From IMG/VR virus record IMGVR_UViG_3300025087_000034: a stretch of 64,000 bases of DNA. The stretch is one strand, 5' to 3'. A program made the translations under genes and the position numbers. The DNA comes from a virus. Lineage: Duplodnaviria; Caudoviricetes. Shown piece by piece: positions 3,064 to 64,000 of this stretch; position 1 is the first letter of the stretch, and the number at the start of each line of letters is the position of its first letter. The notes beneath the pieces are model-generated. The model saw only the letters and a program-made list of their open reading frames with translations. It had not been told where the DNA came from and did not search any database.

Positions 3064-5093
3064 TGTCGGTGCAGTTTATGCCAAAAATTAAATATCCTTA
3101 TTCGTTTGTAAAGGATTTTATAGAAAGTTTTGGGTACAAGCTATATACTGATGAGGAAAGTTACGAGAATGTAACTACCCCGCTGCTAGTAGCGTGCAAG
3201 AAGGGGCATGTACATACCACTAGTTTTAACCATATTTATGGAGGCGGGGCGAAATGTCGTGAGTGTAATAAAATAGGAATAGCTAGAGTTATAGAGGAGT
3301 TTTCTAAGGTTGGCTATACTGTTTTATCTGAAAATTATAAGAATCAGTATACCAGAATAAAGTACTCTTGTGATAAGGGGCATGTTAATTTTACTACTTG
3401 GAATAGTTTTCAGAGTATGCGCAGGTGCCCCGAGTGCGAAAAAGAGCCTTACGACAATATTGTTAAGGCATTCAAGGATAGGGGATATGAGGTATTATCT
3501 TCTTTAGAAGAGTACGATTTAGTTGGTAGCCATTTCAAGTTTCGTTTTATATGCCCAAACGGGCATAGATCGTTTATGACCTATAGTAATTTTAAGAAGC
3601 CCACAGAGTGCGGTTTATGTTCTAAGACTAGAAAGAAGACGTATGAAGAAGTGGAAAAGAGGTTTAGGGCAGCGGGGTTTTTATTGGATGAGGGAGACTA
3701 TGTAAACCAGGACACTGATATGTCTTGTTTTTGTACTAACGGTCACCAAAATAGTACTTCGTTGTATAGGCTTCCTGGTTATTCGTGTAAAGAATGTGAC
3801 AGGGAGGTTTTTTTAAGGGAGCAGGATAGACTTCTTATTTTGGGTTTGATTTTAAGTGAGGAGAGAGATATACATAGCCAGCTTAAGGTTGAGTGTTTTG
3901 TTTGTGGTAGTATATATTGGCGGTATTTTCCAGAGGTTACTAGGTTGAGGGCTTGTTCTTGTTGTGAACAAGAGGCAGAATCTTATAAAAACCTTGTGGA
4001 GCTTTTGCCAATAGGGTTTAAAATGAGGACGGGTATGTGGGTTGGGTCTGATAACACCTACGTAGTTGAGTGTGGTAGGGGCCATGTGGCCAGGCAGGCT
4101 TATCCTAATATAATCGGAAAGAGGGTTGGGTGTGCTGAGTGCTATGGTAATAAGCTTGTGGGAATAGATCGTGTTCGTGACTATATGGGTACTTTTGATT
4201 ATACGCTGCGTTCAGATACCTACGTAAATGCACAGGGAAAATTAGAATATGCATGTCCAAAAGGGCATATAAGACAGATGAGTTGGGATAATTTTTTTCA
4301 TGGAAAAAGGTGCCCAGAATGTAATCCTTCGGGTGTTTCTAGAGCAGAAAAGGAAGTTTGTTCTTATGTTATTTCCCTAATTGGTGAAGAAAATGTAATC
4401 CCAAATGATAGGGAACAAATAAAGCCGTACGAGTTAGATATTTTTGTACCGTCGAAAAATTTTGCCATTGAATATTGTGGACTATATTGGCACTCAGAAT
4501 TTTCCGGCGGGAAAGATAAATTCTACCATAAAATGAAATATGATATGTGTAAGGAGAAGGGAATTAAACTTTTCACACTATTTGAAGATGAATATATTAA
4601 TAAAAAAGATATAGTATTAAATATAATATCACAAGAACTAGTAGGGAGTAATATAGATTTTTCAAAATGTCAAGTAAAAGAAGTAGATGTTGAGGCGGCA
4701 AATAATTTTCATAATAAGTATAATCTTGATGGTGGTTGTGATATAAAATATTCTTTTGGTATGTATTTTAATGGTAATTTAATTAGTTGTATTTCTTTTG
4801 ATAGATATCTTTTTTTGGTGAGGTGTAGTAATATAAATGGTTGTTTTGACAGGCTTTTTTTGGCCGCCGAAAAAATTTTCGGGCGGAAGATAAAAATCAA
4901 AACCAACCTAAGATATGATCAACAAGAAGACACCTACATAAAATTAGGATTTAAAAAAGATAGGTATATAGATCCAACCCCGTTTAATCTAGACGGGGAG
5001 AAAAGATACATTAGTACAGACCTAGACCTTAAAGAAGAAGAATCAGACAGGGTCTGGGACTGTGGTTTCCAGTTGTATATTAATAATGCTTAA
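3063..5093 (+). CDS. CHCC zinc-finger-repeat protein with PD-(D/E)xK/Vsr-like nuclease and a C-terminal accessory domain; putative homing endonuclease
   Basis: About seven GY.LLS..Y.N....L.Y.C..GH......F....RCP.C repeats, then ELDIFVPSKNFAIEYCGLYWHSE and KLFTLFEDEY, then a C-terminal domain ending RVWDCG. Start overlaps the upstream stop (TAATG). Confidence 0.7.
   Translation: MSVQFMPKIKYPYSFVKDFIESFGYKLYTDEESYENVTTPLLVACKKGHVHTTSFNHIYGGGAKCRECNKIGIARVIEEFSKVGYTVLSENYKNQYTRIKYSCDKGHVNFTTWNSFQSMRRCPECEKEPYDNIVKAFKDRGYEVLSSLEEYDLVGSHFKFRFICPNGHRSFMTYSNFKKPTECGLCSKTRKKTYEEVEKRFRAAGFLLDEGDYVNQDTDMSCFCTNGHQNSTSLYRLPGYSCKECDREVFLREQDRLLILGLILSEERDIHSQLKVECFVCGSIYWRYFPEVTRLRACSCCEQEAESYKNLVELLPIGFKMRTGMWVGSDNTYVVECGRGHVARQAYPNIIGKRVGCAECYGNKLVGIDRVRDYMGTFDYTLRSDTYVNAQGKLEYACPKGHIRQMSWDNFFHGKRCPECNPSGVSRAEKEVCSYVISLIGEENVIPNDREQIKPYELDIFVPSKNFAIEYCGLYWHSEFSGGKDKFYHKMKYDMCKEKGIKLFTLFEDEYINKKDIVLNIISQELVGSNIDFSKCQVKEVDVEAANNFHNKYNLDGGCDIKYSFGMYFNGNLISCISFDRYLFLVRCSNINGCFDRLFLAAEKIFGRKIKIKTNLRYDQQEDTYIKLGFKKDRYIDPTPFNLDGEKRYISTDLDLKEEESDRVWDCGFQLYINNA
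4864..4886. repeat. Near-perfect palindrome CCGCCGAAAAAATTTTCGGGCGG; related copies at ~21527-21557 and ~45375-45397
   Basis: Read directly from sequence. Member of the dispersed T-tract/CG-core/A-tract motif family described in findings. Confidence 0.7.
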
Positions 5094-5103
5094 AGGAGAC
5101 TTC

Positions 5104-7028: not shown

Positions 7029-7035
7029 TTAATAT

Positions 7036-8079: not shown

Positions 8080-8109
8080 TTATATAAACGTCAATAAATA
8101 AGGAACGGA

Positions 8110-14100: not shown

Positions 14101-17100
14101 GCGGCTAAAGGTGTGTTTGCTCCTAAGATACAATTAGGGAAGTCCGTTGATGAGCTTTCTCCGATGGAGTCCTTGGTTAAGAAGTTTCCCGAAGTTAGGG
14201 GTGTGGTGATTGCAGAATTAGAACGACAGGAAGCATTAAAGGTATTTTCCCAGCAACAGCAAAAATATCTACAAGCAGAGGTGGAACTACAAAGAGAATT
14301 AAACTCTGTGCAGGACCCACAAGGAAGAAAAGTTTTAGTAACTTTGCAGGAAAGGTTTAATAATCTACATATTTCTACAGCTTCTGCTGTAGGGGCTGCT
14401 AATGATAATATGGCTCCGTTTATAGAATCATTAACAGAAATGTCTCGTCTTGAGCAAGTTGCCAAGAACTTAGAGGATATAGTTAAGGGCCTTAAGAAGA
14501 TAAAGGATTTAAGGTTTGATGAGACTTCATTAGACATTGCTTTTGGTAAGCACCCACTATCTCCAACTCCTGGAGTTTTTGGTCAGCCAGCAGGGCTGAA
14601 TAAATATGAGCGTGATTTATATTCTATAGAGCAGAAGGGGAAGGGACCTCATACTTTAGAGGAATTTAGTAAATTAGCCATTCAAAAGAAGCAGGTAGAG
14701 TTTGCCAGAAAAGAAGCTTTAATTCAGTATACACAAGGGAAGGAAAATCAGAAGTTAGCTCAGGAAGTAGACGCCGCTAAGAGGGCTATGGGTATTTTAT
14801 GGGACGCCCAATATAAGGGTGTGGAAGGATTAAACCCCCTAATTAGTATGTTAAAGTCCGAGCTTTCTTCTGCTGGTGAGGTAATTAGTACTATGGGTGG
14901 GAAGAAAGAATTTAGGGGGGTTCCTGGTCTTTTTGGTGCGCGTGAAGAAATTGCTAAGGTTCAAGAGGCTGTAAAAGAGAGGGAGTTTGCGGTTCAACGT
15001 AAGGTAGTCATGCAGCCTTTAGAGGATTTAACTGCTACTGGTAATAAATTACTAGAAGAGATAAAGGGTCTTTTAGATACTAAAGGCGGCGAAGATGAAA
15101 AGAAGGCTCAGCAGATAGAGGAGGGGGCTTTAAAGGGTACCGGTGGAATAGTGGCGGAGGGAGTTAAGAATCTGTCTATGTTAGGGGATAATCTTAGCAA
15201 GGTTTTGTCCGGAGGGGTGGATAATTTTAGGACTATGTTTGACGCTATTGATGCTTTGTCTCAGGGAAATTTAAAGAGCTTTGGAACAGCCATAGACACT
15301 GTTACAAAGAGCCTGGCTGGTATAGTTGCAGCTATACCGGCCCCACAGAACGTACCTGCTGGGAGGCCTGACTTTTCTGCCTCTGTTGAGAAGCAGGCCT
15401 CTGGGGGGAAAATATCAGGTCCGGCCGGTATAGATAGGGTTCCTGCTATGTTGACAAGTGGTGAGTATGTAATACCAAAGGCGTCTGTTGATAAGTTTGG
15501 TGTTTCGTTTATGGACTCTTTAAAGAATGGTAAGCTTCCCGGGTTTAATAGGGGTGGGTTTGTTCGTAAATATGCACAGGCTGGTTTTGTATCTAAACTT
15601 ACTGATGATGAGAAGGACTATATATATGATTTTTATAAGGCAGATGCACAAGCAAGAGAGATAATAGAGGGTTCCTTAAGTAAACCGGTGGGTACTAAAG
15701 AAACTAATATATTTGCAAATTTAGGTAAAGTTTCTAAAGATAGAGAGGAATTATTAGGAGAAAGTGCTGGAGGGGGTGGTGGATTTATGAGGGGACCAAA
15801 TGGTGAAGTAATAGCTATGGGGGATATTGGTCGTATTAGGAGGAATGTTTTTTCGCCGGCGGAAAAAATTTCTAAACAACCAACAAGAGATTGGATCACC
15901 TCAAAACAACTTATAGATCAATATGATTCATTAAAGTCGAAAGAAGAACTACAAGAATTGGCTTATTCTGTTAAAAATGCCGGGAGTCTTCTTGGCCCAG
16001 AAAAGGACTTTGTAGAAAGTTTGAGACAAGGACTAGATCCTGGATTAGTTTTTCTAGGACAAATGCAGGGGCAGTTTGGTGAAGGTAATAAGATTATACA
16101 AGGCTCTTTGGAAAAGCCTGCTAGTACTACTATATCTGAACTTAAGAAAAAAGAGTTGGAGGCTAAAAAATTAGTTGGGGCAACTTTAGGTAATATAAAG
16201 GGTTTTGATCCTAGGGAAGTATTAGATAAAGAAAGAAGCAAGACTTTAGAATCATTGAAGAATCTTGGTGGAACTATTGGTGGTTTTATAGGAAAGCAGT
16301 TTGATCCAGATGATGCTATGATAAAGGAAATGACGAAGGGTGAGGATACATGGAAGGATTTTGGTAAGGGTGTGGGTAGGGGGTCTATGGGGCTGGTTTC
16401 AGATGTATTGTCTGGTGATATATTGGAGAAAACAGTTAAGGGGGCAATCGATTTTTCTAAGGTTGCTGCTAAGATAGGGTGGGAACAGGTTACTACAAGT
16501 CCAATAGAAACAGCAATAAAGGGGGAAAAATCCACTGCTCTTAAGTTGTGGGAGGGTATATGGGGGGCACCTTTAGGACAAAAGGGGGAGATGTTGGGTG
16601 GGTTGTTACCTAGTTTATTGTTACCGGGGGCCGGTGTTAAGGTAGCCGGTAAAGCAGGTAATCTTAAGGGGGGGTTAAAATCCAGGAAGAAGGTTACGGG
16701 TAAAAAAGCTGATATTACGGAAGCCCAGTGGTTAGATATTGTTAGGGCTTTTAAGGAGGAGGGGCTTTTTGTTGACCCTCTTCTTAAGAGTGGCACCATT
16801 ACTGGTGGTGGTTCTAGGGTAGGCCCTAATGTCGGTGGGTTATCAAAGGTTATGGTTGATAGGGGGCAGTTGTATGGTCAAGTAGGTATGGGTAAGTTAA
16901 TGGCCCCAGATTTAGCCCCAGTTAAGGGAAGAATGTCTAGATATATGGGAGAGGCTCGTAAGATTGTGGGGGATGTAGGAGTACCGAGGGGAGAGAGTAA
17001 GGGGAACCTTATTGGTTATGTGGAAACTCTTCTATCTAAGGGTGTTTCAAAAGATGAAATAACTAATATGTTAGCTAGCACACAACGTATGAGTAGGGGC

Positions 17101-20795: not shown

Positions 20796-21461
20796 ATGGC
20801 ACTTTCTTGTTTAAATATAGTCAATGAAAAAATAAGAGCTACGGTAAAATTTGGGGGGATAGAAATAAAAACCCCATATGTTAAGGCTTTTAATATAGAT
20901 AGTGCTAGACCAAAAGCGTCTGCAACATATAGTTTAACTGTAGAAATCCGGATGGGTGTTAATTTTACTCTTGGTGAGGATTTGGAAATTTGGGCGGGGG
21001 AAAAAGATAATGAAACAAAAAGATTTACAGGTATTATAGCAAATATAAACTCCCAACCAAATTATGATAAAGCAGGTTATTATGTATTACAAATATCAGG
21101 TTATGACAGACTAGGACTATTAGAACGTAAAACATTCTCAAGAAGACTAAGAAGTGATGGTTTTTCTATGTTTGCTGCCATTGAAGGTGGTCCTACAAAT
21201 AGACCAACAAGAGGATACTCAACAGAAAAAAGAATTACTAATGGTAAACATACGTATATGTCTTCATCTCCTAGACCAGATAAAATAGAAAATTCAGAAA
21301 TAAGGTGGATGCCAACAAGGGGTAATGATAGGCATGGGTCTCTAAATAAAGCCAGTAGGTTAGAATACGGAAATCTGGACGCAAGCCAAACAATAAAGCC
21401 ACATGATCATAGCACGTTAGAGAAAATGGGGCCCAGTTTTGGGGTGTATAGTGCTGACTAG
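20796..21461 (+). CDS. Putative minor tail protein, 221 aa
   Basis: Abuts the previous gene. The pattern GEDLEIWAGE...RFTGIIANI....YVLQISGYDRLGLLE resembles N-terminal domains of tail hub proteins. Confidence 0.4.
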   Translation: MALSCLNIVNEKIRATVKFGGIEIKTPYVKAFNIDSARPKASATYSLTVEIRMGVNFTLGEDLEIWAGEKDNETKRFTGIIANINSQPNYDKAGYYVLQISGYDRLGLLERKTFSRRLRSDGFSMFAAIEGGPTNRPTRGYSTEKRITNGKHTYMSSSPRPDKIENSEIRWMPTRGNDRHGSLNKASRLEYGNLDASQTIKPHDHSTLEKMGPSFGVYSAD

Positions 21462-21617
21462 TATATTCATTTGGGAATTTTCAGTATAAGGGAAAGTATG
21501 GTCGGGAGACTTTGATTTGTTTTTTGTTGGCCCAAATAAAAATTTTCAGCGCGCCAAAAAAGAACTTACCAAAAGTTCAAAATTAATTTATTTATATATA
21601 AGAGGATAAAAGAAAAA

Positions 21618-23309: not shown

Positions 23310-23339
23310 ATCTTTTACTAAGAGAATAAATAATTAAAA

Positions 23340-23684: not shown

Positions 23685-23691
23685 ATTTAAA

Positions 23692-24609: not shown

Positions 24610-24869
24610 TATGTTCAACCAGCGTAGTTAGTTATGAACAATTTGAATTTATAGATTGTAGTACACTTAATGTTTCATATAATGCTAGAGGTTTAGCTTC
24701 TGTAAGTTTTTCTGTAGTGTCTAGCAAGAACAGTATGGATAATAACTATACCAGTCTTACTATTGGGGAAGTTGATTTTAATGGTTATTTAGATAATGTT
24801 CAACTGTCTGTAATTCCAGGCACGACCGTATATGTATATCAAATAAGCCTACAAGCATTTGGCTGTTAA
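24600..24869 (+). CDS. Hypothetical protein (89 aa), probably structural
   Basis: Intact beta-rich ORF overlapping the upstream stop by 10 nt. Confidence 0.6.
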   Translation: MPLVCSTSVVSYEQFEFIDCSTLNVSYNARGLASVSFSVVSSKNSMDNNYTSLTIGEVDFNGYLDNVQLSVIPGTTVYVYQISLQAFGC

Positions 24870-24883
24870 ATAGGAGAACTGCT

Positions 24884-25042
24884 ATGAGGTGTGGAGGATG
24901 CGGGAAAAGACCGCCAAAAAATAATTCGCGGCCACAAAAAAAGACCCCAAAAGAAAGTTCCCTTAAAAAGTATGCTTTCCTACACCCAAATCAAAAAGCA
25001 TTACTAGAGTCTATAGAAGCAGAAGAAAACAAGGAACAATAA
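24884..25042 (+). CDS. Small basic protein, 52 aa (MRCGGCGKRPPKNNSRPQKKTPKESSLKKYAFLHPNQKALLESIEAEENKEQ); not in the ORF track
   Basis: Translated by hand. AGGAGA SD at ~24872, ATG 24884, and the TAA stop abuts ATG 25043 of the next gene. Confidence 0.65.
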   Translation: MRCGGCGKRPPKNNSRPQKKTPKESSLKKYAFLHPNQKALLESIEAEENKEQ

Positions 25043-25757: not shown

Positions 25758-26855
25758 ATGTGTAGAAAGCTTACGTACGAAGAAGTTAAAGGGACTTTTG
25801 AAGCTAGTGGTTATACCCTACTTAGTAAAGAATATATAAGTAATTGTACTAAGTTGGATTATAGATGTTCTGAGGGGCATTTTGGTTCAATGACGTACAG
25901 CAGTCTTCAACAGGGACACTCTTGTCTTATTTGTAGTATAAAGAATAAAAGACTTAGCTATAAAGATGTTAAAAAAATGTTTGAGAGTAGGGGATATGTA
26001 TTGCTTAGTAAGGAGTATATAAATAGTGGTACTAAGTTGGATTATAGGTGCCCTAGAGGCCACCTTGGGTCAATGGTTTATAATCATTTTCAGGATGGGA
26101 GAAAGTGCCCTGTTTGTGTTGGTGAGGATCGAAGGCATTTTTATGAAGAGATTAAGGTTGTTTTTGAGTCACGAGGCTATAAATTGATTAGTAGTGAATA
26201 TAAGGACAATAAAACTAAGTTAGAGTATGTGTGTCCAAAGGGGCATTTAGGATCTATGACCTTTAGTAATTTTCAACAGGGAAGGAAGTGTCCTGTTTGT
26301 TCTGTTGATAATATTAGGCTTTCTTATGAAGAGGTTAAGGAAGCTTTTGATAACAGGGGTTATACGTTACTTAGTACTGAGTATGTAAATTCTAATATTA
26401 AGTTGGATTATAAGTGTCCAAAGGGGCATTTAGGTGCTATGAAATATAATAGTTTTCAGCAGGGAAAGTCTTGTCCCATTTGTTCATTAAACTACTCTGT
26501 TTCCAAGGTTTCCCAAGTATGGCTTGATTCTTTAGGGGTGTCAAATGAAAGGGGCGTTAGTAGAGAAGTTACTTTGAAAATTGGAGAAAACAGGTTCAAA
26601 GCAGACGGTTTTGATCCAGAAACCAATACGGTTTATGAGTTTCTAGGTACTATTTGGCACGGAGACCCCAGGGTGTGTAAGCCTTTAGATATAAATTATG
26701 TCAATAAAAAGACCTTTGGTCAACTTTATCAGGAGACCTTTGACCGTATAAAATTAATAGAAGAAGCAGGATACAGAGTAATTTATATTTGGGAGTCAGA
26801 TTTTAGATCCCAAAATTTTTCTGGCGGGGAAAAAGAATTAATCCAACATGCTTAA
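25758..26855 (+). CDS. CHCC zinc-finger repeat (x4) + Vsr/DUF559-like endonuclease, paralog 3
   Basis: ATG 25758 (MCRKLTYEEVK) after AGGGGG; the ORF track starts at 25689. Four repeats, then SKVSQVWLD...FKADGFDPETNTVYEFLGTIWHG...YIWESDF. Confidence 0.8.
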   Translation: MCRKLTYEEVKGTFEASGYTLLSKEYISNCTKLDYRCSEGHFGSMTYSSLQQGHSCLICSIKNKRLSYKDVKKMFESRGYVLLSKEYINSGTKLDYRCPRGHLGSMVYNHFQDGRKCPVCVGEDRRHFYEEIKVVFESRGYKLISSEYKDNKTKLEYVCPKGHLGSMTFSNFQQGRKCPVCSVDNIRLSYEEVKEAFDNRGYTLLSTEYVNSNIKLDYKCPKGHLGAMKYNSFQQGKSCPICSLNYSVSKVSQVWLDSLGVSNERGVSREVTLKIGENRFKADGFDPETNTVYEFLGTIWHGDPRVCKPLDINYVNKKTFGQLYQETFDRIKLIEEAGYRVIYIWESDFRSQNFSGGEKELIQHA

Positions 26856-27258
26856 TAAATATATTTTAGAATTACATTGGTTATATACAGATTTAATAAA
26901 TGATGAAACCTGTATATTGCACCAACCCTACTTTTCAGGTCCAGCATTAAAGATAGCACAAAGAATAGAACCAAATAATAACATAGTTATAGACCTTTCA
27001 GGTCAATATAGTTCATTAATTTCTAGTCATTATTTTGTAACACTCTTTTGGAAGGAAGTTAGGTACTATGACGAGCGTGCTTATTTGGGAGACGCAAGAT
27101 TTTTCGGCGGGCTAATAAATAAGTTGTCAAAACTGACAAAGAATGATTATATATTAATTGATACTTCAAAACATGAAGAAAATAAACATATGTATAATTT
27201 AGTATATGAAGGAAGAATCTATACACAAGATAAGAAGGATAAAGTAATTAATGGTTAA
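26848..27258 (+). CDS. Hypothetical protein (136 aa)
   Basis: Intact ORF overlapping both neighbours by 8 nt. A-rich. Confidence 0.6.
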   Translation: MLNKYILELHWLYTDLINDETCILHQPYFSGPALKIAQRIEPNNNIVIDLSGQYSSLISSHYFVTLFWKEVRYYDERAYLGDARFFGGLINKLSKLTKNDYILIDTSKHEENKHMYNLVYEGRIYTQDKKDKVING

Positions 27259-32791: not shown

Positions 32792-34090
32792 GTGCCTAAT
32801 TTTTCTGACATAACTATAAGGCAATACTCTCCGGGGTCCGTTGGTGGGTACGTGGCAGATAGAGATTTTAATTGGAGTAGCGAGGGAGACTGTAGGGATT
32901 CCTTATTGGGGGTTTCCACAGAGATAGGGGTGCAATTTTATTACGCTTATCAACATCCCCGCCCAATGTTTGTTAGTTTGCCCTATTCTGTGTCTGAAGA
33001 CTGGTCTGATAGTCCGTCGAATGCCCCATTTTTATCTGATTTAGAAAGGTACTCGTATGGCAGGTTTGGGCCTAATAGGTATGGGAAGTTAGATAATTAT
33101 CGGGGGGCGAGTGTAAGACAAAATTACTTTGGTATGGCGTCAGAATCGTTAATTACTGAATTAATAACTAGTAAAGATACTGTAATATATGATATTGATA
33201 CGGGTTTAACGAATGAAACCTTAGTTTATGAAACCGAGGTTCCGTTTAATTACACAACCTTAAACCAACGTAACTTATTATTAAATGCTTCCCCAGCACC
33301 GTTTTCTTATAAGAATCCTGTTGATACGGATGTTTATATACGAATGGGTAATTATGTTTATACTCTTAGTTCAGGAACTATCACGCTTTCTTTGGACGGG
33401 GAAAGTAAAACAGGATTAGAAATAACCCCTTATTTTGGTGGGTTAGGCGGTTATGACGTTACTTGGAGTAATGACCAGGAGTTTGGGTATAATTCAAGAG
33501 TAGCGGTTCATTGGACGGTTTATGACTCTTACGTTCCACCAAATAAAATAGATTTCGATTATTGGTTTATGACCGTACAGGACTATTTAGGTCCTAGGTT
33601 TTTTTCTTTTTCTCCGCAGGATGGGGATATTGGTGTAGGTGTTGATACCTGCATTTCCTTTGTTGTTAGAGATTATGAATTAGGTATAAATATAAGTAGT
33701 CTTGAACTATATGTAAATAATGTTTTTATACCTATTAGTAGTATGAGTATAAGTGAAACAAGTTCTGGTGATGGTTATAGTATTTCTTTTTGCCCGCCGG
33801 AAGAATTTTTATATGGTGACACTATACCAGTATCAATATATGTAGAGGATAATTCAGAAGAAAAGAACTACTCTTTTTATGTGTATTCTTTTACTACAGA
33901 GGAAAGCTTGGCTCCTAATGTAATATCGCAGGATCCAAGGCCTTGTATTGGGTATGTTCCTGTTGACTATGATGTTGAGGTTGACGTAGTTGACGGAGGT
34001 GGCGGTATAGACGGTGAATCAATTGTACTAATAATAGATAGCAAGCCTGCTGTATTTAGAAAAGAGCCTATAATATATAGAGAGGATTAG
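32792..34090 (+). CDS. Structural protein with tandem SbsA/Big_5-like Ig domains (GTG start)
   Basis: GPRFFSFSPQDGDIGVGVDTCISFVVRDYELGINISSLELYVNN and APNVISQDPRPC...DVEVDVVDGGGGIDGESI. Confidence 0.55.
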   Translation: MPNFSDITIRQYSPGSVGGYVADRDFNWSSEGDCRDSLLGVSTEIGVQFYYAYQHPRPMFVSLPYSVSEDWSDSPSNAPFLSDLERYSYGRFGPNRYGKLDNYRGASVRQNYFGMASESLITELITSKDTVIYDIDTGLTNETLVYETEVPFNYTTLNQRNLLLNASPAPFSYKNPVDTDVYIRMGNYVYTLSSGTITLSLDGESKTGLEITPYFGGLGGYDVTWSNDQEFGYNSRVAVHWTVYDSYVPPNKIDFDYWFMTVQDYLGPRFFSFSPQDGDIGVGVDTCISFVVRDYELGINISSLELYVNNVFIPISSMSISETSSGDGYSISFCPPEEFLYGDTIPVSIYVEDNSEEKNYSFYVYSFTTEESLAPNVISQDPRPCIGYVPVDYDVEVDVVDGGGGIDGESIVLIIDSKPAVFRKEPIIYRED

Positions 34091-39846: not shown

Positions 39847-42360
39847 ATGCGCTGGAAAGAGGGTGGAATAAACTATGCCTCTGGTAGTTTTAGTATTCCC
39901 GGGAGTAGCGTTCGGGTGTGTGCCTATGATAATGGCACACAGGTGTGTGATAAAGGACACAAAATAACAACACCAGGACAGTGTTATTCTCAAAGCATAG
40001 GAACTATAATAAGTACAGACCCTACGTTTCAGCCTACTTACCCTATATGTTTGGTAGATTATATGGGTCTTATTAATAGTTCGGGTTTTATATTTAATAG
40101 ACAGTATGGTATTTCTAGCACTTTTAATATAAGTACTTTAGATGTTGTTTTGTCTGCCTATAGCTTGGTGTTGTCTTCATTATATACAGAGAAAGAAGAG
40201 TATTTAGTTGTAAAAAGTATATATAAGTTGTTTGATTCTTTAGGTATTAGGGTTTGGTCAGATAGTATAACAGACAGTTATTCAGCCTATTTATCTGATT
40301 ATTATATGGTTGGTACTTTTAAGCTTTTATTGTTGAATAGTGGCTACATTCTCAGAGCTATAAATGCCTTTTCTGAGTTGTACCAGTATGATGTGTATGG
40401 TAGTGTTTCCTTACTTATGCCCTATTATTTTTTCCCTAAGATTACTAGGCAGGTAAATTTAGTAGTAATAGATGATATTACTGGTAGTTTTTCTGAGGTT
40501 GAGTCTTTATTTAAGTTGAGTGTAGAAAATTCTTCCGGCGGGGAAAATGAAAATCCTACAGATATATGTGTAGGAGACTTAACAAAACCATCTCTAGAAA
40601 ACATTCTACCTATACCAGGTTCTGTACTAAGACCAAATACTTCCTCTATATCATTTACTATAATAGATGCTATAGGGGGTGTTGATAGGTCTTCATTATA
40701 CATAACTATAAGTGGAAGTATAACAGCCCAAGCAGGTGGTAGTTCTATTATTGAGGCGGGTGTTATTCAAACTCCCCTGTATGCTTTTTTGGACGGGGAT
40801 GAGAATAGTTATGAATTTACCTATAACCCACCCTTTTTGTGGGCTGATAATGAAACAGTTTCTATAGCAGCTCATGGTTCTGATAAACTGCCTTTAGACG
40901 CAGAAGATGAAGAATTTATATGTGGTGGTCTTTCTACGAATAGCTTTGATGAGGCTTGGTCTTTTAATGTTGCTGGTATAAAGGAACTTACTTGTTCTAT
41001 AGTTGGGTTGGCGGATTCAGAACCTCCGTACATTGATTCTATATATCCTGTTCCTTTTTATGCTTATGCAAGATATGACGATGATATAACTTTTAACATA
41101 AAAGATGACCATGCCGGAGTTGATTTAAGTACTCTTTATGTCTATATAAATAATATTCCTGTTATTAGTGCTGGTGTGATTAATTCTGGTAATGTTTTTT
41201 TGGCCGGCGAAAAAAATTCATATCAATTTACATGGTCTAATACAGTAGGATTTATATATGGTGATAGAGTAGAAGTACATATAGTAGTTTCAGACTTATA
41301 TGCTGTTTTACCAAATATGTTAGACACAACTTATTATTTTGATGTAGTTGATGATTCTTCTCTGCAGTTCTTAAATTTTTTGCCGGCGGTAGGAATAACA
41401 CCTGACCTAGAAAATGTAAATATTGAAATAGATATTATAGATTCTCTTTACAATATTGATCAAAACAACTTATATATAAGTATGAACCAAGAAGTTGTAG
41501 ATAGTACCAAGACAAATATACAAGGTAATAGAAATTTAACTACTACATATTCTGGTTTAACAGCAATATCAGGTACTTGGATACATGATGCAGAAGTACT
41601 AGGCAGTATAATTACAAATACAACAGTTTCTGGTTCTTATATTATAGGAGGTAGTATAGAATATGGAAGTTCCATTTCTGGTTTTATGGGCTCTTTTCCT
41701 GCTCCTTTCGACTTAACTCCTTCCGGTATGATTATTTCCGCTGATTTATATGAAGGAATTGTAGTTTCGGGGACACTGGAAACTGTTCTTGTTAGTGGCA
41801 CTAACTGGGATGGCAAATATGAGAATTCAACTATTACTGATGTTAGTTTATCTGGGTTTTATTGTAGCAGCGTTTCTTCTTATAATACGATAATAAGTGG
41901 TACTATTGGCTACCATTTAGAGTATCACCCAGTAAATGACTTTGCTTATGATAGACCAATAGATATACTTATACATGCAGAAAATTTAAATTCCATTTCA
42001 CCGGTTGTTCGTGAAAGGATTTATAGGTTGTTTTATGGTTATAATGTAAAGACATTTAATACTAAGTTCAATAATAATGATAGAATAGTTGTTTATCTAG
42101 AAGCTTTAAATACATCAAATTTTTCGGCGGCGCTAAAAAATTCATATTACTTCAACACGAAAGAAAAAAGTATTTCTAATATATATGCTTCTATAAATAT
42201 AGTAGAACCATGGTTAAATATAACAGCCGATATACAACCACAAGCACCCGTACACAGGTACGGAGAAACAATAACTGTAGTACTATACGCACAAGACGTA
42301 CAAGGTAATGTATTGGGGCCGTATACCTTTTCATATACGATAGAAGATGCCCCAGAATAA
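39847..42360 (+). CDS. Structural protein (837 aa) with repeated SbsA/Big_5-like Ig domains
   Basis: KPSLENILPIPG...SISFTIIDAIGGVDRSSLYITI; PPYIDSIYPVP...DITFNIKDDHAGVDLSTLYVYINN; LQFLNFLPAVG...IEIDIIDSLYNID. Confidence 0.55.
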   Translation: MRWKEGGINYASGSFSIPGSSVRVCAYDNGTQVCDKGHKITTPGQCYSQSIGTIISTDPTFQPTYPICLVDYMGLINSSGFIFNRQYGISSTFNISTLDVVLSAYSLVLSSLYTEKEEYLVVKSIYKLFDSLGIRVWSDSITDSYSAYLSDYYMVGTFKLLLLNSGYILRAINAFSELYQYDVYGSVSLLMPYYFFPKITRQVNLVVIDDITGSFSEVESLFKLSVENSSGGENENPTDICVGDLTKPSLENILPIPGSVLRPNTSSISFTIIDAIGGVDRSSLYITISGSITAQAGGSSIIEAGVIQTPLYAFLDGDENSYEFTYNPPFLWADNETVSIAAHGSDKLPLDAEDEEFICGGLSTNSFDEAWSFNVAGIKELTCSIVGLADSEPPYIDSIYPVPFYAYARYDDDITFNIKDDHAGVDLSTLYVYINNIPVISAGVINSGNVFLAGEKNSYQFTWSNTVGFIYGDRVEVHIVVSDLYAVLPNMLDTTYYFDVVDDSSLQFLNFLPAVGITPDLENVNIEIDIIDSLYNIDQNNLYISMNQEVVDSTKTNIQGNRNLTTTYSGLTAISGTWIHDAEVLGSIITNTTVSGSYIIGGSIEYGSSISGFMGSFPAPFDLTPSGMIISADLYEGIVVSGTLETVLVSGTNWDGKYENSTITDVSLSGFYCSSVSSYNTIISGTIGYHLEYHPVNDFAYDRPIDILIHAENLNSISPVVRERIYRLFYGYNVKTFNTKFNNNDRIVVYLEALNTSNFSAALKNSYYFNTKEKSISNIYASINIVEPWLNITADIQPQAPVHRYGETITVVLYAQDVQGNVLGPYTFSYTIEDAPE

Positions 42361-43950: not shown

Positions 43951-44094
43951 TATATTCTTTGACTTTATTAGTAATGGGGCATTAAAATAATTATATTATG
44001 TTTCTTTTTTGATTTACAAATCATATGCTTCTTATTATATATAGGGTAAGAGTCGCTTGGGCTCATGACATTTATAGATAATAGGAGGCACAAG

Positions 44095-45231: not shown

Positions 45232-45434
45232 TTTATGTTTTTGTATGTGTGATTTAATGCTTAAACCTAAATTATTAACCCAGAGTTGCATTTTAATTTT
45301 CGGTCTTGTTTTTTTCTTTGGGGACTATATAGGACATTACCTCTATTGTAGTATTATTTTAAGGGTTTTTTCTTTCGCCGAAAAATTTTGTGGGCGATAA
45401 AAAATCAAAATTAACTTAGGATAGGAAAAAACAA

Positions 45435-51765: not shown

Positions 51766-54700
51766 TGCGAGTACTTCCAAATATAGTTAATATACTTAAA
51801 AATGCGAGTATTAGAAACTGTGTGTCGTGTATGCACGATAACAAGAAAGGCTACTCTGTTGTTTGGAATACCAACAATGATTTAAATGGTTATTCATCTG
51901 TGGGGGGTGTCGTTTCACATACTGTTTGGGACGGTGTTTATTTTGGCGTTTCTGTTTCTGGTTCTTGTTATATAGAAAGCCCAGATACTCTTGATATAAA
52001 TGGTTCATACTATACACAGTTTAAAGCAGACTATAGGGTTGATTCTGGTAACAAAATAGTATCATCGTTATCTGGTAAGGTGCAGTTTAAGACTAATAGG
52101 GAACAGTATTGGTCAGAAGAAAAGTCTCTATATTTTGATGCTTATACAGATAATGCCTATCACGAGCATGTTGTTGATATGTCTATGCATGCTAAGTGGA
52201 ATGGCACTATAACCGCTTTAAGGTTCTACCCGTTTATCGATGGTGTAAGTGGTTTAAAATTTCATTTACGTGAGTTAGGGGTAGATTCTAGTAATAGGTA
52301 TTATTGTGATACAGGTAGTAGCGATGATGTTTGTGATAAGTATTTTGAGTACTCACACCCCTGTCCTTGGACAGGCAGTCCCGGGTACGCCTTAGCCAGT
52401 ACTGTAACGGGCACACTAACTATATACGAAGGTGTGAATGATACCTTATTGGTTGACATAGATGACTATGGATATCACTCTGTTAAAATAGGATCTGGGG
52501 TTAATAGGGAACTTAGTAGTATAGCTTGCGATATAGAGGAGAAGTTGAACTTAATTGGTGTTGGTGGGTACGCATATGCTAGGTGTTATGTAGATGAAAG
52601 CAGGTTAATAGTAGAGTCTGATTGGCGGAATAGTTCTTCTAGGGTAGTAATAGGTGTTCCAGAAGAGGGCTCTGCTTGTGTCGTCCTAGGTTTTTTTGGT
52701 GCCACAGGCGCTCCTTTATATACTAGTTTTTATGGTACAGATAAGGCTAGTGGGTACGAGGCTCCTTCTGTCCTAGTCTCTCCGTCCTCTTTGTCTTATT
52801 TAAAAAGCGCGGATAGGTCTAGTGCCGAAAGTTCTTTTAGTATTACTGGAAATGACTATTCTGTTTATGGGGGGAATAAGGATTATAAAAATTTTTCGCG
52901 CGACACAAAAATAATCTTTAGAAATCAAACTATAATAGACTACTGTAATCCTATAATAAGAACAGGAAAATTAAAGTTTTTAGGGTACAGTGGGGATAGG
53001 TATAACAATACAGAATTAAGAATATATAGAGAAAAAGTTGACGGTTCAATTTCTTTAGTAGGAAGTGTTTCTGTTCCTAGCTCTGCTGATGAGCTTGATA
53101 GGGTTTTTGAACTTGATATAGACCTTGACGTAAAGAAGGGTGACTTGGTTTCTTTATATAGTGCGGGTTTGCATTTAGGGGCAGAGACAGAAAAAGGGGA
53201 CTTTTCGTACTATCTTTATGATTATGACCTAGGAAGCCTTAACGAACACGTGGAGTATTTATCTGGAGCAGGGGAGGCGGGGCTACCCTTATATGTCAGG
53301 GGGTCTAGAGTAGCCTCTGAGGCTGTTATAGACATCATTTTTGATGAGGTTTTACCTGTGGAGTCTCTGGTTGTGTCTGCGGAGCACGAAGGCGTGTCTG
53401 AAGATATAAACCTGTGCACCTTGAGGGCAGGTGGTAACAATGGGGGGCCTTATTTAACTGGCTATACTGGTTTAGACATAGAGGGCAACCAGGCCCCCAC
53501 TTTAGTTAATATTGATTCTATAATAGACGGGGTTAAGCAGGACGTTAATACTGTTTCCACTTATTGTTACCCAGGCTGGCTAGATTTAGGACTTCCTGCC
53601 CAGGAAGATTATTATTATACTCCTTTTAGTGTGGCCATAGATTTCATTAAGGGTATAGATGTATTTTTTGATGTTTATAAGATAAAGCTTTATTTTGTAG
53701 ATAAGAAAAACATAAAGAGCTTTAGAATAGAGGTACCCTTTAGTTTTGATGCTAATGATGAAAACAAAATATGGGGGATAGGGTTTCCTACTTATAATGA
53801 AGTCTATACAGAGCTTGGGTTGATGGATAGTGAATATATCTATCTCTATAATAATCCAGCTATATTAGTTGCAAATGATTATCAGGTAGCTTACTCGCAT
53901 CTTGATTATAGGTATTTAGAGTTAGTTTTGGAGCCATATAAAACGAAGGCGATTCGCTATAATGCTTCTTTAGAGGGGTATTTTGTAGAGGACCCCCTAC
54001 AGTTAGACTACTCTGGTTTTCCTATAGCGCCAAGCCCAAAAATTCAAGAAATAGAAGTATATGCCAAGTCTATACCTGAGAATAGCATATCATCATATTT
54101 TAGTGTAGAGACCTCTAAAGATGGCACCATATATTTGGGGCATAATGACATAGACACAGTGTCTTCAACACGGGCTTCTTATACTGTGGGTAGGCCAACA
54201 AGATATTTAAGATTAAATATAAAGGCGAAAACACCCCTTAAGGTTTTTGATATTTATGGTATCTTAAGTGAGGGTCTTGTTGAACTTAATTCTAACAATT
54301 CACATTGTTTGAGTTTAAACCCGCCCCTAGATTTACCTGGGTCTTCTGTAGAAAAGGTAACTGTAACCAATGACAGTAGTAGTGTGTCCGATTTTTATGT
54401 AGATATATTGGAAGATAGGTCTTCAAGAGAGCTTTGTGTATTATGGAATAAGCTAGATTCAGATACTAGTGTCCAATATAGCGAGATTGGGCCGGGGGGT
54501 ATTGTTCATCGTAGACAGCCTTTTTATCTTAGAGCATATAACTATGCTTATAGGTGTCCAGGATATTTTTTGGATAAGTATTTTTTACGTGATACTAACT
54601 CTTATCTTAGCCAGGATGGAGGGCTTTCTTGGTCTAATATTGGTACTATTGTAACTGATGGCCAGAACTCTACTTATATAACAAATGAATACGAGTTGTA

Positions 54701-56795: not shown

Positions 56796-59700
56796 TGGTA
56801 AGCCAAACAGGTTATAACATAGTAAAGGAAGGAGACTTATATAATTCAGAGATTGCTACGTATTTTGTCTCTGTTTCTGGCTTAAGGTTTCTCTATGTTA
56901 ACCCATCAGAGGCGGTTTCGTTTGTAGTACCACAGGGCCGCGTATCCTCTTTAGACATAGTTTTTGGGGAATACTTTGATATAGACAATATAAAATGTTA
57001 CCTTTCTCCAATAAACTTGGGGGATATTAGTATAAGCTATGGCATCGAGTCTCCTTTAGAAAGCAGTGCTACAATATCTTCGTCCGGTACTTTTATTTAT
57101 GCAGATATAAAAAACGCCGTTGGTTTTTGTAGGATAACGTGCTCGGGTTCTGTTGACACCTCTGTTAGTAGCTTATTTGTTGAGGGTGTTCGTAACGAGT
57201 CTATGTATTTTGGTGTTCAGAATGCCCCTATCAGTATAACTAGTATAGGAAATTCCCCTATTGGGTATTATGGTTCTGCTTCTGAGATTTCTATATATAA
57301 TAAAGATAAGGCGTCCTCAAAGGCCCTGGTAGCCGTTGCTCCTACAGGGACCTATATAGATGAGTATTTGTATTTGGGGACTACCTCTTCTGGTCAGTTC
57401 TATGGTATAAACCAGCTGGGTATAACACAGCCTTCTTTTGATAAAATATTGACTACTCAGGATAGTTTCGTCTATTCCGACGAGTCAGGCCTTGTGAATT
57501 TGTGGGACATTGTTTCCACCTCCAGCTCGTATTTTACTGTAAATTCCGACAGCCTGTCTTTTGTGGCTTCTTTTATTAATGCCGATATACATGTGGCCAG
57601 GCCAGCTCATGGGTATAATGAGTCTAGTGTCTTAGGTTTAGTATGTAAGGATACTTTTACTACAGATCAAAGTTTTGTTGCCTCATTAAAGATAAAATTT
57701 ACTGATTCTTCTTTCGATTCTTATGATAAGTCTTGGGTTTATAAACCTAATAAATTTTTATTTGGTTTTACTAATAGCTTTCCTATTCAGGAGCCCTTGC
57801 TATCCTACTCGTCTTTAGACCAGGGGTCGTATTCTAGACAGGGAGGAAGTTTAGCCGCTGTTTGGGTTGGTGCTGACAATAAAGAGCAGGGTACCCTATA
57901 TGTTGGCGCGGCTGCTAATGATGGGGATTTTTCTAGTAATAATATACTTAGTTCTTTTGATGAAGTAAGAACTGTTCATAATGGTCACAGTATACTCTCT
58001 GCCTATAGTTTGGAAAGTATTTCTGAGTTTGTTCTTTATGAAGAAAATTATACAGACGGAACTTTGCAGGCTCCGTGGAGGACATTGAAGGTTTCGTATG
58101 ATCACCTTAGTGGCAAGGCAGTGTTCTTGTTCGACGGGGTTATTGTTGGGGAATATGTTTTTAGTTCCGGGTCTTTTTTTGAGGGTAGTAGGTTTTTCTT
58201 GTCTTTCGTGGGGTTTGGGGGTGCAGAAGTAGCGGTGAAGGATTTTTTTGTAAGCGTGGATGAGTACTTAACCTTGTATTCAAACCAGTCCTCTGCTACT
58301 GCCTATGGTTCTAAAGATAGCACACAACTACCGTACAAACTTGTGGATGGTTTTTATGACAATAGTAACTATAGCTCTGCTTGGGTTTCCTCTACGGTGC
58401 CCTCTCCTGCCAATTCTTTTTCTGTGTATTTTGGTGGTGTGTATAATGTAGAGGCTGTACGAATAAAGAGGGCCTCTGAAGGTAGCACCATTACTATTTC
58501 AGGCCTTTCTTCTTATACTCCTACGTCATCTGTAAAAACTTTGCAACTTAATTTTGACACAGGGGACCAGCGATACGTTTCTTTTAATAAGGAACCTTTT
58601 CTTATTGACGGGTGGGATATTGGTTATATGTATACAGTGTTCGGGGAAAGGTCTCCTGTTTTGGGGGCCTCATCTGTTACTGCTAATTTTTATCAGGTTA
58701 ATAGCCTAAGTGGTAATACTGGGTGTTTAGTTATAGACGAAGTAGAGTTTTTTACTGTTTCCGGTATTAGGTCGCTTCCATCTAGTAGTTATATAGATGA
58801 TAGTTATGGTTTTTTTTCCGGCCAAAAAAGAAATCTGTCTAAAACTTCTACCTCTCCAACTATGGTTATGGTAAGTAAAGATTTATACGATGTGTCTACT
58901 AATGAAATGTGCCATTTATTATTGGAGAATCGAGATTACGGGGGATCTTCTTTGGTATTTAACAATGACGACCCTTGGAAATATATAAATAGGACCTATG
59001 CAGAGTCTGTATTTAAGCGTGATGGAAGGGGCAGTGAGTGGGTGTTTTGTAGTGTAGAGGGCAATACAGCTTATATATGGAGACAGTTTGAGGAAGTTGT
59101 AGATTTAGGGGCCTTTTTTGTTAATTTTGTAAACTCTTCTAGTGATTATGGGTTGGGGTTTTCTGGAAGGCCCGATAGTTGGAAACTACAGTTTTTAAGA
59201 ATAGGAGGTGACCCGCTAACAGATAGTGACTGGATTAACATACCACCAGTTTCGACTTCGTATCACAGTGTCTCTGATTACAAAACCTATAGGGATAGGT
59301 TAGTTTCTAATAATGACGGAGAATACTATACTCTGTATTTGAACGCATTTGATGGTCTTGGCACAAGTGTGTCCCTTCCTTCGGATTTATTGTGTCGTCT
59401 TAATAGGGATAATAAGCAGACGTATTTATATAGTACAAGCGCAGAATTTTCTGCTTACGTCGAGTTTGATAGTGAGATAAGAACACAAGGTATTAGATTG
59501 TATATATCATATGGTTACACAACGACCAGCAGGGCAGTAGTTGCTTCGGGTTATTCTATGACAGGGTTTGTGGTTTATAGTAGCATGGCTGTTGGTTCGT
59601 ATACGTCCCCTATTTTTGATTTGGGTGGTAAACAAAATACGGAGAGGGTATTTGTTGATACTGTGCACAACGAAGGTAGCTCCTATATAATGTATAGGGC

Positions 59701-61927: not shown

Positions 61928-64000
61928 TCGGCTATATGATACCTCATACGTAGATGGCAGGGGTAACCAGGTGGTGTGGTCTAACGATACTAAGTTAGTG
62001 TCCTACTATAGCTGTGAGGGAGAGTCGTGGGATATTTATGGGGGTACCTCTTCAAGTTGGTACTTAGAAAATTATAGGCCTACCGATTTTTTCTATTCTA
62101 CAGATTTGGCAGATGATAAGTGGTCATATTTTTCTTATAGAGGTACTATTTCTGGGTCTGTTTCTAGTGGTTTGACTTTGGGTACTTATGGAAAAGAGGT
62201 TAGAGGAGGTGTGACTTCCTACGGAAAGTGGACTCTTTCAGGAATATTTGATATAAGACTTTACATTGATGAAAATTCTTATTATAATGAATATAGGAGT
62301 AATGTAGCTGTTGGTCTATCTGTTTCTAAGGATAGTTCTTATAAATATAGGGTGTCTAAGTATTTTGATGGGTCTTCTATAGGAGCTATGTCTCATTATG
62401 TAGAGGGTAAAGAACTAAAATATTACTCTTGGTTCAACAACGGTTCTTTTGTTTCTACTGAGGCTGATTCAAGTGTATCTTGTTTGAGGATCGTTCGTGA
62501 TGCCTCGGGGGTGTCCTCCTATGTAGATTACGGGGGCGGTTTCGTACAGGTCGGTAGCACGGTATCTGGGTTATGCTGGGAGAAGCCTTTGTATGTGGAG
62601 TTGGAGTTGGAGGCTGAGCAGGCTAATACAGTAGTGTGTAGGGTTGAGGGGGTGTCTATAAGCGGGTCCGTTATCCCCTCAACTATGTTTTCCTCAAAAA
62701 TACGTGGGGTTACACAGTCTTTTCCTGGTGAGACTATTTTTGTTGTTGATTCTTTGGGCTTATCTGTGGTGGACTTGTCAGACTCCTCCCTTTGGATGAG
62801 GTTTGATTTGGATAGCGGCGCTATGTTTAGAGACGTTGATTGTAAAATTTCGGCGGGGGAAGGAAAAATTTATTATACTTCCACACAAGGACTTAATTGC
62901 ATAGATTTTTCAAATGATACTTTTTATAGGTATATAAAAGGAAAGAAACAAACTAGTAGTTATTGTATAGTAGAAAGAAATTTTGATACAATTTTGTACG
63001 ATTCTATTAGTATGGATTTGCTTCCAGACAATCAGGTTAACGACGTATTTTTTAGGAAGTTTAATGGTACAGACTATTTAGCGGTCACTACTGTTAGTGG
63101 TTTGGATATACTAGTAGATGATTTTTCAGTATATAGTAGTTTAAATAGAAATGAAAATATATCAAATGTTTTTATTTCCCCCGCTGGGAAATTATTGTGG
63201 TCTTCTTATAGCCAGGACTCCAATACAGGAAAACTCTATGCTTTAGATGACATATCTGCTATACTTACTGGTGGTGGGGTGTTCAATTATTCAGTTTTTT
63301 ATGATTCTGATACTACCCCTATTTCCCTATCTTCTGAGAAAATAAATTCTATATTCTGTTCTATTGAGGGGGAGATAGTTTTAGCAAATGAGTTTGGAAT
63401 AGATTATATAAATAATAGTGGGTCAGTTTCTTTTGGCCCAATTAACTCTATTAATCCCTTAAGCAGCCCTTCTTTTGAATCGTTTTTAGGGGTTGATTGG
63501 CACTTGCTTTACTCTTCTGTTTTACCAAAGCCCCTGGTTTCCGTTTCTAGGTCTTCTTCTTGGAAAACTAATGGTAGTTATAGCTTAAAGCTTTCTTCTA
63601 TTAGTGGCGGTTACTATGTTTCTAATTATAGTGGTGGTGTTTATCAACAGGTAGATTTTTCATTAATAGATAAATTATATTTCGATATTAAGGTTGTGAA
63701 TACTACTGGTATTACCTCTAATATAGGGGTGTTTGAGGTTCTTTGTGGTGGGTCTGTTTTATTGTCTGTTAATAGTATAGAAGGCTCCTTTATAAAGTAT
63801 AATTATTCGATAGATTGTTCTTCTATTAATTCTGTAGGTCAGCTGGTATTTAGACTTAGATATCTTACTTCTATTGCAGGTGTTGGGGAACTTTCTTATT
63901 ATGTTGATAACGTAAGGGTATTTATAAAGGAACCAGACTATAATATAATACCAACTAGAACACATGAGGTTTTATCTGCAACTTTATTTGAAGCTTTAGG
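61920..64000 (+). CDS. Large virion protein, truncated by the window end (over 690 aa; MTNRLYDTSYVDGRGNQVVWSND...)
   Basis: Hand translation from ATG 61920, which overlaps the upstream stop, is open to the end of the window. S/Y/V-rich with propeller-like segments (LPDNQVNDV...YLAVTTVSGLDIL). Confidence 0.75.
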   Translation, partial: MTNRLYDTSYVDGRGNQVVWSNDTKLVSYYSCEGESWDIYGGTSSSWYLENYRPTDFFYSTDLADDKWSYFSYRGTISGSVSSGLTLGTYGKEVRGGVTSYGKWTLSGIFDIRLYIDENSYYNEYRSNVAVGLSVSKDSSYKYRVSKYFDGSSIGAMSHYVEGKELKYYSWFNNGSFVSTEADSSVSCLRIVRDASGVSSYVDYGGGFVQVGSTVSGLCWEKPLYVELELEAEQANTVVCRVEGVSISGSVIPSTMFSSKIRGVTQSFPGETIFVVDSLGLSVVDLSDSSLWMRFDLDSGAMFRDVDCKISAGEGKIYYTSTQGLNCIDFSNDTFYRYIKGKKQTSSYCIVERNFDTILYDSISMDLLPDNQVNDVFFRKFNGTDYLAVTTVSGLDILVDDFSVYSSLNRNENISNVFISPAGKLLWSSYSQDSNTGKLYALDDISAILTGGGVFNYSVFYDSDTTPISLSSEKINSIFCSIEGEIVLANEFGIDYINNSGSVSFGPINSINPLSSPSFESFLGVDWHLLYSSVLPKPLVSVSRSSSWKTNGSYSLKLSSISGGYYVSNYSGGVYQQVDFSLIDKLYFDIKVVNTTGITSNIGVFEVLCGGSVLLSVNSIEGSFIKYNYSIDCSSINSVGQLVFRLRYLTSIAGVGELSYYVDNVRVFIKEPDYNIIPTRTHEVLSATLFEAL

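Follow-up and report, generated by a model that had tools for sequence, protein, structure and literature searches.

A composition-defined T-tract, CpG-rich core, A-tract element selected on top of the genes of a giant uncultured phage

What is being signalled by a short DNA element, a T-tract followed by a CpG-rich core and an A-tract, that recurs throughout the genes and gene boundaries of a giant phage? The element was noticed in a 64,000-nucleotide (nt) stretch of IMG/VR virus record IMGVR_UViG_3300025087_000034 (the window), and it is a statistically very clear signal in a kind of genome, that of huge uncultured phages, which is known almost solely as gene lists. In a 145.5-kb IMG/VR viral contig with a completeness estimate of 68%, the window corresponds to positions 30319-94318, read on the minus strand. 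The terminase gene is identical on contigs reaching 258.5 kb, and DNA of this uncultured, giant phage is present in groundwater and soil metagenomes. Among cultured phages, the nearest share only 26% terminase identity. We turned the whole contig to the orientation of the window, so that a window position equals the oriented position minus 51225, and computed motif statistics on the 145.5-kb contig; about 110 kb of the genome lies beyond that record. Window genes are all on the plus strand and include those for a 3587-amino-acid (aa) tape-measure protein, several proteins of 1700-2000 aa, and many HNH, GIY-YIG and PD-(D/E)XK nucleases. The coding strand is skewed toward G and T, CpG is at about 0.6 of expectation, and a Shine-Dalgarno sequence precedes about half of the genes.

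The element is enriched and defined by composition

Strict copies were defined as runs of at least five residues that are only G or C (S), with at least five T in the seven upstream positions and at least five A in the seven downstream positions. The contig holds 37 such T..A copies, compared with 2.5-3.2 in Markov simulations of order 1, 3 and 5 (maximum 6). The other flank arrangements, A..T, T..T and A..A, occur 3, 3 and 5 times, which is the expectation, and half-sites by themselves are not enriched in the contig. At graded thresholds the T..A class numbers 44 against 6-8 expected (flank sum of at least 10), 28 against 1-2 (intermediate threshold) and 16 against 0 (flank sum of at least 12); we therefore put the number of true copies at about 37-40 for the contig and at about 12-16 for the window. 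The pattern TTTTNSSSSSSNAAAA is matched 42 times with at most one mismatch, and its reversed form not once. With 37 strict copies where about three are expected, the dispersed motif described in an earlier reading made from the letters alone (the sequence-only reading) exists. A search of the literature found no described signal of the same shape.

The consensus is (AAAA)T6-7, an S core of 5-10 nt, and (T)A6-7(TT), with a span of about 20-24 bp and conservation that ends about 11 nt to either side of the core. Position profiles give 76-97% T at six upstream positions and 68-92% A at seven downstream positions. The core is without fixed sequence, yet it is CpG/GpC-rich and excludes G or C homopolymers. 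Z-DNA-type alternation of C and G accounts for 66% of core steps, compared with 36% in other S-runs, but many cores are not alternating (GGCGGGG and CGGCGGG are examples). The G fraction of the cores is 0.54 despite the G-skewed genome, and both strands read T-tract, GC, A-tract. Although they amount to 0.18% of the genome, the cores carry 26% of its CGCG and 20% of its GCGC. Genome-wide, these two words are depleted to 0.37 and 0.57 of the mononucleotide expectation, which suggests restriction-site avoidance.

A constant total length is rejected, since core and arm lengths are uncorrelated (r = 0.02). A TTT-N12-AAA geometry nevertheless fits 32 of the 37 copies although the core varies from 5 to 10 nt, the homopolymer arms providing slack, and the variable core length is not taken to exclude a rigid dimer. 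Mirror complementarity is confined to the A/T tracts. A hairpin or cruciform is also rejected, as the minimum free energy is -2.54 kcal/mol compared with -2.58 kcal/mol in core-shuffled versions (Wilcoxon p = 0.82), and Rfam gave no match in the window.

Selection acts on the DNA

Most strict copies (26 of 37) lie within coding sequences (CDS), where a synonymous-codon shuffle leaves 4.5+-1.9 and a whole-codon shuffle 1.6+-1.2. These copies use all three frames and encode unrelated peptides of the type F-S/L-(G/A/P/R)n-E/K. Their core codons GCG, GGC, CGC and CGG are rare, with a mean within-amino-acid usage of 0.12 compared with 0.32 expected, and their core lengths are not multiples of three (8/27). 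The in-CDS copy at 4862 encodes the peptide LF-L-AA-EK, for which homologues give an ungapped alignment with a conserved LF.AA, and this copy was therefore written by substitution. The codon shuffles, the use of every frame, the rare codons and the alignment without gaps together lead us to conclude that the motif is a DNA-level signal selected on top of genes. The sequence-only reading had proposed just such a superimposed signal, with most copies inside CDS, unrelated peptides and rare CG-containing codons, and all four points are borne out.

Other origins of the copies were considered and rejected. A mobile cassette, a paralogous duplication or a MITE-, REP- or RPE-like element is contradicted by the lack of common flanks (we found no flanking similarity among the 37 copies), by the ungapped copy 4862 and by core lengths that are not multiples of three. 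Origin by insertion is rejected for 4862 itself, the single alignable copy. Protein-driven look-alikes do occur: a conserved nuclease peptide, (E)LDIFIPAKK(L/V)AIE, with codons of the TTT-ATT-CCC-GCG-AAA-AAA type, accounts for matches at oriented position 31007 and, in related loci, at L013:5533 and 22189 and L018:19112. As a general cause this artefact is rejected, since it holds only for the nuclease peptide DIFIPAKK. Strain-level variants differ at 0-9 positions in 21.7 kb, and the protein collection holds no relatives at 70-90% identity (the best TerL match is at 59%).

The element marks gene boundaries and is followed by an A-rich zone

Intergenic DNA makes up 4.3% of the genome but holds 11 of the 37 copies, a 7-fold enrichment. 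Within 300 nt upstream of the next start lie 65% of the copies, compared with 25% of random positions. Many of them stand 18-60 nt ahead of a ribosome-binding site (RBS) and ATG, with no second conserved box between. Seven copies begin 0-39 nt past a stop codon, and the distance to the next start then ranges from 22 to 215 nt. A few copies lie just inside a gene, and one such case is an over-extended open reading frame (ORF) call. At least five strong copies are found 1-3 kb within giant ORFs, remote from starts. Spacing is Poisson-like, with a coefficient of variation of 1.02, and copy density tracks gene density. Periodic spacing is rejected on this basis, and clusters every 3-8 kb, as the sequence-only reading had them, do not hold up. 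Poisson spacing and the gene-boundary bias also weaken its suggestion of a periodic packaging or positioning element.

The DNA downstream of the element differs in composition from its surroundings, as had been noticed from the plus strand of the window. On the coding strand, A reaches 0.44/0.39/0.37 over +0-150 nt compared with a baseline of 0.30 (36 copies), G drops for about 150-250 nt, and the AT skew is positive to about +250 and one-sided. The A-rich zone is present too at 10 copies that lie more than 500 nt from any start. It contains no sub-motif, and where it is coding, Lys and Ile go up and Ala, Gly and Val go down. The motif is thus both tied to gene boundaries and polar.

Host-type transcription signals are present alongside the element

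Gaps without the element hold canonical hairpin-plus-T terminators, for example after the capsid gene. Good sigma70-like promoters (TTGTCA-N17-TATAAT, TTGTCA-N17-TATTAT and TTTACA-N17-TATATT) are found in gaps that are mostly without the element, at oriented positions 127175-127238 (75950-76013 in window numbering, beyond the window), 6918-7047, 6280-6452 and 40284-40418. The last of these gaps contains a stop, the element, a sigma70-like promoter and a start, in that order. Hairpin and element seldom share one gap. Across the window, sigma70-like sites are not enriched (34 compared with 37.9 expected). The phage probably uses host-type transcription too, and since sigma70-like promoters and hairpin terminators coexist with the element, the latter is an additional class of signal. 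The sequence-only reading was right about a DNA-level signal and missed both its tie to gene boundaries and these canonical promoters and terminators.

The element itself is neither of the two canonical signals. As a sigma70-type promoter it is rejected because it has no TTGACA or TATAAT and because it spans 20-24 bp with tracts 5-10 bp apart. As an intrinsic terminator it is rejected because the T-tract is 5' and the A-tract 3' on both strands, because a hairpin is not selected, and because the A..S..T order that a terminator would have occurs 3 times compared with 37. Intrinsic terminators, bidirectional ones included, are like the element in having a GC-rich centre between A and T tracts and in standing at gene ends; they differ in that the tract order of the element is inverted and its core is no more self-complementary than chance.

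The element is strong in some related lineages

First scans for relatives with single proteins gave no matches. TerL relatives at 36-59% identity are syntenic, and we compared these over +-10 kb around TerL. The T..A class has 9 members there in this phage, 7 in L018, 5 in L013 and 3 in L012; L017 and L104 have 2 each, which are weak, and L016, L102, L103 and L014 have none. The element is thus strong in only some related lineages, and its recurrence at syntenic junctions is loose. The TerL-portal junction carries the element in this phage and in L012, with differing cores. In L018 the element lies about 190 nt inside the TerL 3' end, and in L016 and L017 the TerL and portal genes are directly coupled. 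Two further coincidences are approximate. One concerns this phage and L012, in both of which the element stands at the 3' end of gene 7975-8190 or its orthologue. The other concerns this phage and L018, where the orthologues of gene 12586-13062 have a copy in a variable linker, at positions that agree to within about 10 residues.

On its left the main arm adjoins a region of about 11.5 kb that is oppositely oriented, higher in G+C (44-52%; L099:9000-20600, left of the contig's oriented start) and nearly without the motif. It has long non-coding stretches and RadC-like and LDcluster4 genes, and it is probably an early or regulatory region. Beyond it, four copies lie among small genes of uncertain orientation. 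In the oppositely oriented region, A-richness over the whole length and doubtful gene calls make polarity linked to copies unreadable.

A duplex DNA site acting on transcription is the favoured reading

We favour a reading in which the element is a duplex-DNA site that is read by shape or stability and acts on transcription at gene boundaries, and we hold this tentatively, at a probability of roughly 0.4. The results above exclude or weaken chance, codon bias, hairpins, periodic packaging signals and mobile cassettes as explanations. What points to transcription is that copies favour gene boundaries and scale in number with genes, that the downstream zone is polar, and that host-type signals coexist with the element. 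The element would then be a composition-defined punctuation signal of the duplex, kept by selection in a long one-strand gene arm; the A-rich, G-poor DNA on its downstream side, which extends for about 150-250 bp as transcription runs, would melt easily. The reader would be a protein that recognises the T- and A-tracts by indirect readout, with a rigid GC spacer between them; a dimeric regulator encoded by the phage and an RNA polymerase modified by it are the candidates. Our preferred form is a phage-specific promoter or activator site that would launch transcripts with an unstructured A-rich leader; such a site would explain both the placement inside genes upstream of starts and the leader itself. 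The protein as reader and transcription initiation as the process are both inferred. We also count for this reading the near-absence of the element from the oppositely oriented region, and its recurrence with different cores at syntenic junctions (the TerL 3' end and the orthologue of gene 7975-8190). Among the functions suggested in the sequence-only reading, a protein binding site is possible, as the TTT-N12-AAA fit indicates, while a T5-like nick site is weakened; a promoter is possible as well, yet no RNA polymerase or sigma factor is detectable in the 145-kb part of the genome.

A phage regulator that reads a T-tract/A-tract dyad indirectly has a precedent in p4 of phage phi29 (PMC1904284). 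This phage-encoded transcription switch binds the site 5'-AACTTTTT-15 bp-AAAATGTT-3' and reads it largely by indirect readout of A-tracts (PMC1904284). The p4 site and the element are alike in being dyads with the T-tract 5' and the A-tract 3'. They differ in that p4 sites are a handful in one promoter cluster, with a fixed 15-bp spacer and specific flanking bases, whereas the element has about 40 copies genome-wide, many of them in genes, with a variable, G/C-only and CpG-rich spacer. Phage-specific promoters inside coding DNA include those of the T7 type and the T4 late promoter TATAAATA. Like the element, these are short, dispersed and unlike sigma70 promoters, they often lie in the 3' end of the upstream gene, and their number scales with that of genes. 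Unlike the element, they are fixed and directional; the core of the element is degenerate, its form is symmetric, and a dedicated polymerase or sigma factor was not detected in the 145 kb.

Several observations weigh against a promoter or activator site, beginning with that undetected polymerase or sigma factor. The composition of the element is symmetric where promoters are usually directional, and its core varies in length from 5 to 10 bp. The seven copies 0-39 nt after a stop are where a terminator would be placed, and one of them is then followed by a sigma70-like promoter. The deep copies in giant ORFs are distant from any start. In L012 the portal ATG comes directly at the end of the A-tract, so that a leader would not fit. 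Two of the far-left copies lie between convergent gene ends, according to database gene calls that are uncertain. The closest TerL relatives, L016, L017, L102 and L103, are without the motif apart from two weak copies in L017. A NusG-like protein (NGN and KOW domains, 22.9 bits compared with a cutoff of 22.2) has its gene at oriented 18974-19459 (L010:12085-12570, minus strand), two genes upstream of TerL, and this gene does not co-vary with the motif, being present in all sampled relatives with or without it.

A bolder version, which we think rather unlikely, would make the element a new class of transcription signal set by DNA mechanics and not by base sequence. Its parts would be a weak T-tract, a CpG/GpC clamp of maximal stability, an A-tract and a long zone that melts easily, and a phage-specific factor would read the whole as a symmetric start site or as a stop or pause site that needs no hairpin. 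The unusual traits of the element are that it is selected against codon preference, that it retains the otherwise avoided CGCG and GCGC, and that it is defined by composition, so that motif finders built on fixed words would overlook it. As a promoter or activator site, it would give a handle on the phage's own transcription factor and on the prediction of transcription units in the clade. If it is a hairpin-free pause or terminator site, T-tract-directed termination would be extended to a bacterial virus.

Alternatives to a transcription start or activator site

The alternative that survives best, although we consider it unlikely, is a hairpin-independent, bidirectional pause site, terminator or insulator that trims read-through and antisense transcription at gene boundaries. 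A weak U-tract hybrid followed by a stable CpG/GpC clamp would make the polymerase pause and sometimes release, or a bound protein would block it. Both strands read T-tract, GC, A-tract, so the site would look the same to a polymerase from either side. The seven copies just past stops, with their variable distance to the next start, fit such a function, as do gaps that hold hairpin or element but seldom both, the stop-element-promoter-start order in gap 40284-40418, and the two far-left copies between convergently called genes. The cores favour the CpG/GpC steps that are the most stable stacks by nearest-neighbour parameters, at 66% alternation compared with 36%. A distant precedent is the T-tract-directed, hairpin-free termination documented for RNA polymerase II (PMC7615648). 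Against this function, 26 of the 37 copies are within ORFs, many of them 20-250 nt before the stop, where termination would yield mRNAs without stop codons. The one-sided A-rich zone would have no role, and the phage already has canonical hairpin-plus-U terminators. We know of no bacterial or phage polymerase that terminates at a U-tract followed by a GC block.

It is also rather doubtful that the element is a non-transcriptional DNA site, used by a phage nuclease or nickase (as for T5-like nicks) or by a replication, recombination or DNA-organising protein, and occupying boundaries and protein linkers only because these are the most tolerant places. Gene boundaries do have copies on either side, linkers of low conservation contain copies as well, and deep copies recur about every 6 kb in the block of giant genes, where there are no boundaries. 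The downstream A-rich zone could act as an unwinding region. The phage encodes at least a dozen zinc-finger HNH, PD-(D/E)XK and GIY-YIG nucleases, and one nuclease family (o30104/o54288) is present at all motif-positive loci and at 1 of 6 motif-poor loci, a correlation drawn from about 10 related, phylogenetically non-independent loci in which some motif matches are inside the nuclease genes themselves. In T5, phiKMV-like and tf phages, localized single-strand interruptions occur at fixed words, all of them on one strand, and the consensus of the major T5 nicks, R/GCGCRGG, is likewise CpG-rich (PMC3517423). Such nick sites resemble the element in being dispersed on a phage genome. They differ in that the element, known here from assembled contigs, is degenerate and symmetric, with no fixed word or strand bias. 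The Poisson-like spacing speaks against this explanation too, and the 7-fold intergenic enrichment and the bias to positions upstream of starts exceed what tolerance alone would give. DNA uptake sequences and Chi sites are exact, oriented words in cellular genomes. They share with the element a genome-wide distribution, an override of codon preference, the use of all frames and an origin by point substitution. The element differs as a composition-defined dyad that is viral and has a strong gene-boundary bias.

Improbable is a functionless by-product of a lineage-specific mutational or selfish process, such as filler at TnAn sites, slippage or a mini mobile palindrome. Patchiness among relatives, with gain and loss at the TerL-portal junction, and a preference for tolerant places would be expected of it. 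The ungapped copy 4862, the in-CDS core lengths and the absence of common flanks are not. Nor do the cores consist of simple repeats; they abound in the CGCG and GCGC that are avoided elsewhere in the genome, and a strict T-to-A polarity with an A-rich zone downstream is hard to get by mutation alone. Least probable of all is an RNA-level element for mRNA processing, ribosome standby loading or translational coupling: copies 18-60 nt before many RBSs and an unstructured A-rich, G-poor RNA downstream that would favour ribosome or RNase access are set against a weak RNA fold that is not selected, a symmetric composition as though both strands mattered, copies deep in ORFs far from starts, and the lack of any Rfam match in the window.

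Copies in the window

Twenty sites had been listed in the sequence-only reading. Nine of these are strict (4862, 15854, 26823, 27105, 41202, 42125, 45376, 52897 and 58818) and seven are relaxed (4504, 20992, 21549, 24927, 33792, 40535 and 41382); the remaining four (7916, 30704, 46395 and 62851) are half-sites with a poor T- or A-tract. Three sites are tandem doublets of the form T-S-A-T-S-A. The first, at 4855..4893, reads T7-GGCCGCCG-A6 and then T4-CGGGCGG-A..., and lies in the 3' part of nuclease ORF 3063-5093, with the next start about 200 nt downstream. The second, at 21522..21562, has cores GGCCC and GCGCGCC and is located in the intergenic gap 21462-21617. The third, at 45369..45403, has cores CGCCG and GGGCG; it comes directly after nuclease gene 44065-45231, and the ATG at 45435 is 40-55 nt downstream.

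Strict copies near gene boundaries include that at 26816..26836 (T5-CT-GGCGGGG-A5), which is at the 3' end of nuclease ORF 25689-26855 with the ATG at 26848 18 nt further on. The copy at 27098..27119 (core CGGCGGGC) is in ORF 26848-27258, with the next start about 140 nt away. ORF 39847-42360 contains two strict copies, at 41195..41216 (T7-GGCCGGCG-A7) and at 42118..42140 (T5-CGGCGGCGC-T-A6), the second with the stop about 235 nt downstream. Three strict copies lie far inside giant ORFs. The copy at 15847..15869 (T6-CGCCGGCGG-A6) is deep in the 3587-aa tape-measure ORF 8110-18873, and the plus-strand stretch that follows it, 15870..16020, is an example of the A-rich, G-poor zone. The copy at 52890..52909 (T5-CGCGCG-ACACA5) is 1.1 kb into the 1676-aa ORF 51765-56795, with 43% A in the 150 nt downstream, and that at 58811..58830 (T8-CCGGCC-A6) is 2 kb into the 1710-aa ORF 56795-61927.

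Among the relaxed copies, 4497..4518 (core CCGGCGGG) lies within nuclease ORF 3063-5093, 20985..21007 (core GGGCGGGGG) is close to the start of ORF 20796-21461, and 24920..24940 (core CGCGGCC) has a start at 25043, about 110 nt downstream. The copy at 33785..33807 (core GCCCGCCGG) is in ORF 32792-34090, about 300 nt short of its end, and 40528..40550 (core CCGGCGGGG) is within ORF 39847-42360. The copy at 41375..41396 (core GCCGGCGG) has a good T-tract and a poor A-tract.

Additional features of the genome

The nuclease genes mentioned above, at least a dozen of the zinc-finger-repeat HNH, PD-(D/E)XK and GIY-YIG types, are scattered in the virion gene block, at window positions 1798-5093, 6261-7028, 22245-28627 and 44065-45231 and at oriented 30104-33225.

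A second kind of punctuation was seen in strong intergenic stem-loops that are directly followed by ACAAG(T/G), for example after the major capsid gene. These occur at window position 1752-1776, at oriented 30009-30041 and 17517-17557, and in relatives, including ones without the T-S-A motif, at L012:20056-20090 and 6818-6857, L016:11347-11381 and L017:18569-18609. A genome-wide statistic for hairpin plus ACAAG, computed with a permissive hairpin detector, was not significant. We read the stem-loop with ACAAG(T/G) as a clade-wide punctuation signal that may serve as a terminator or a processing site.

The TerL proteins of several relatives carry inteins, with Intein_splicing and LAGLIDADG matches (L012:10001-12343, L013:10001-12472 and L104:10001-12919), while the TerL of this phage is free of an intein.

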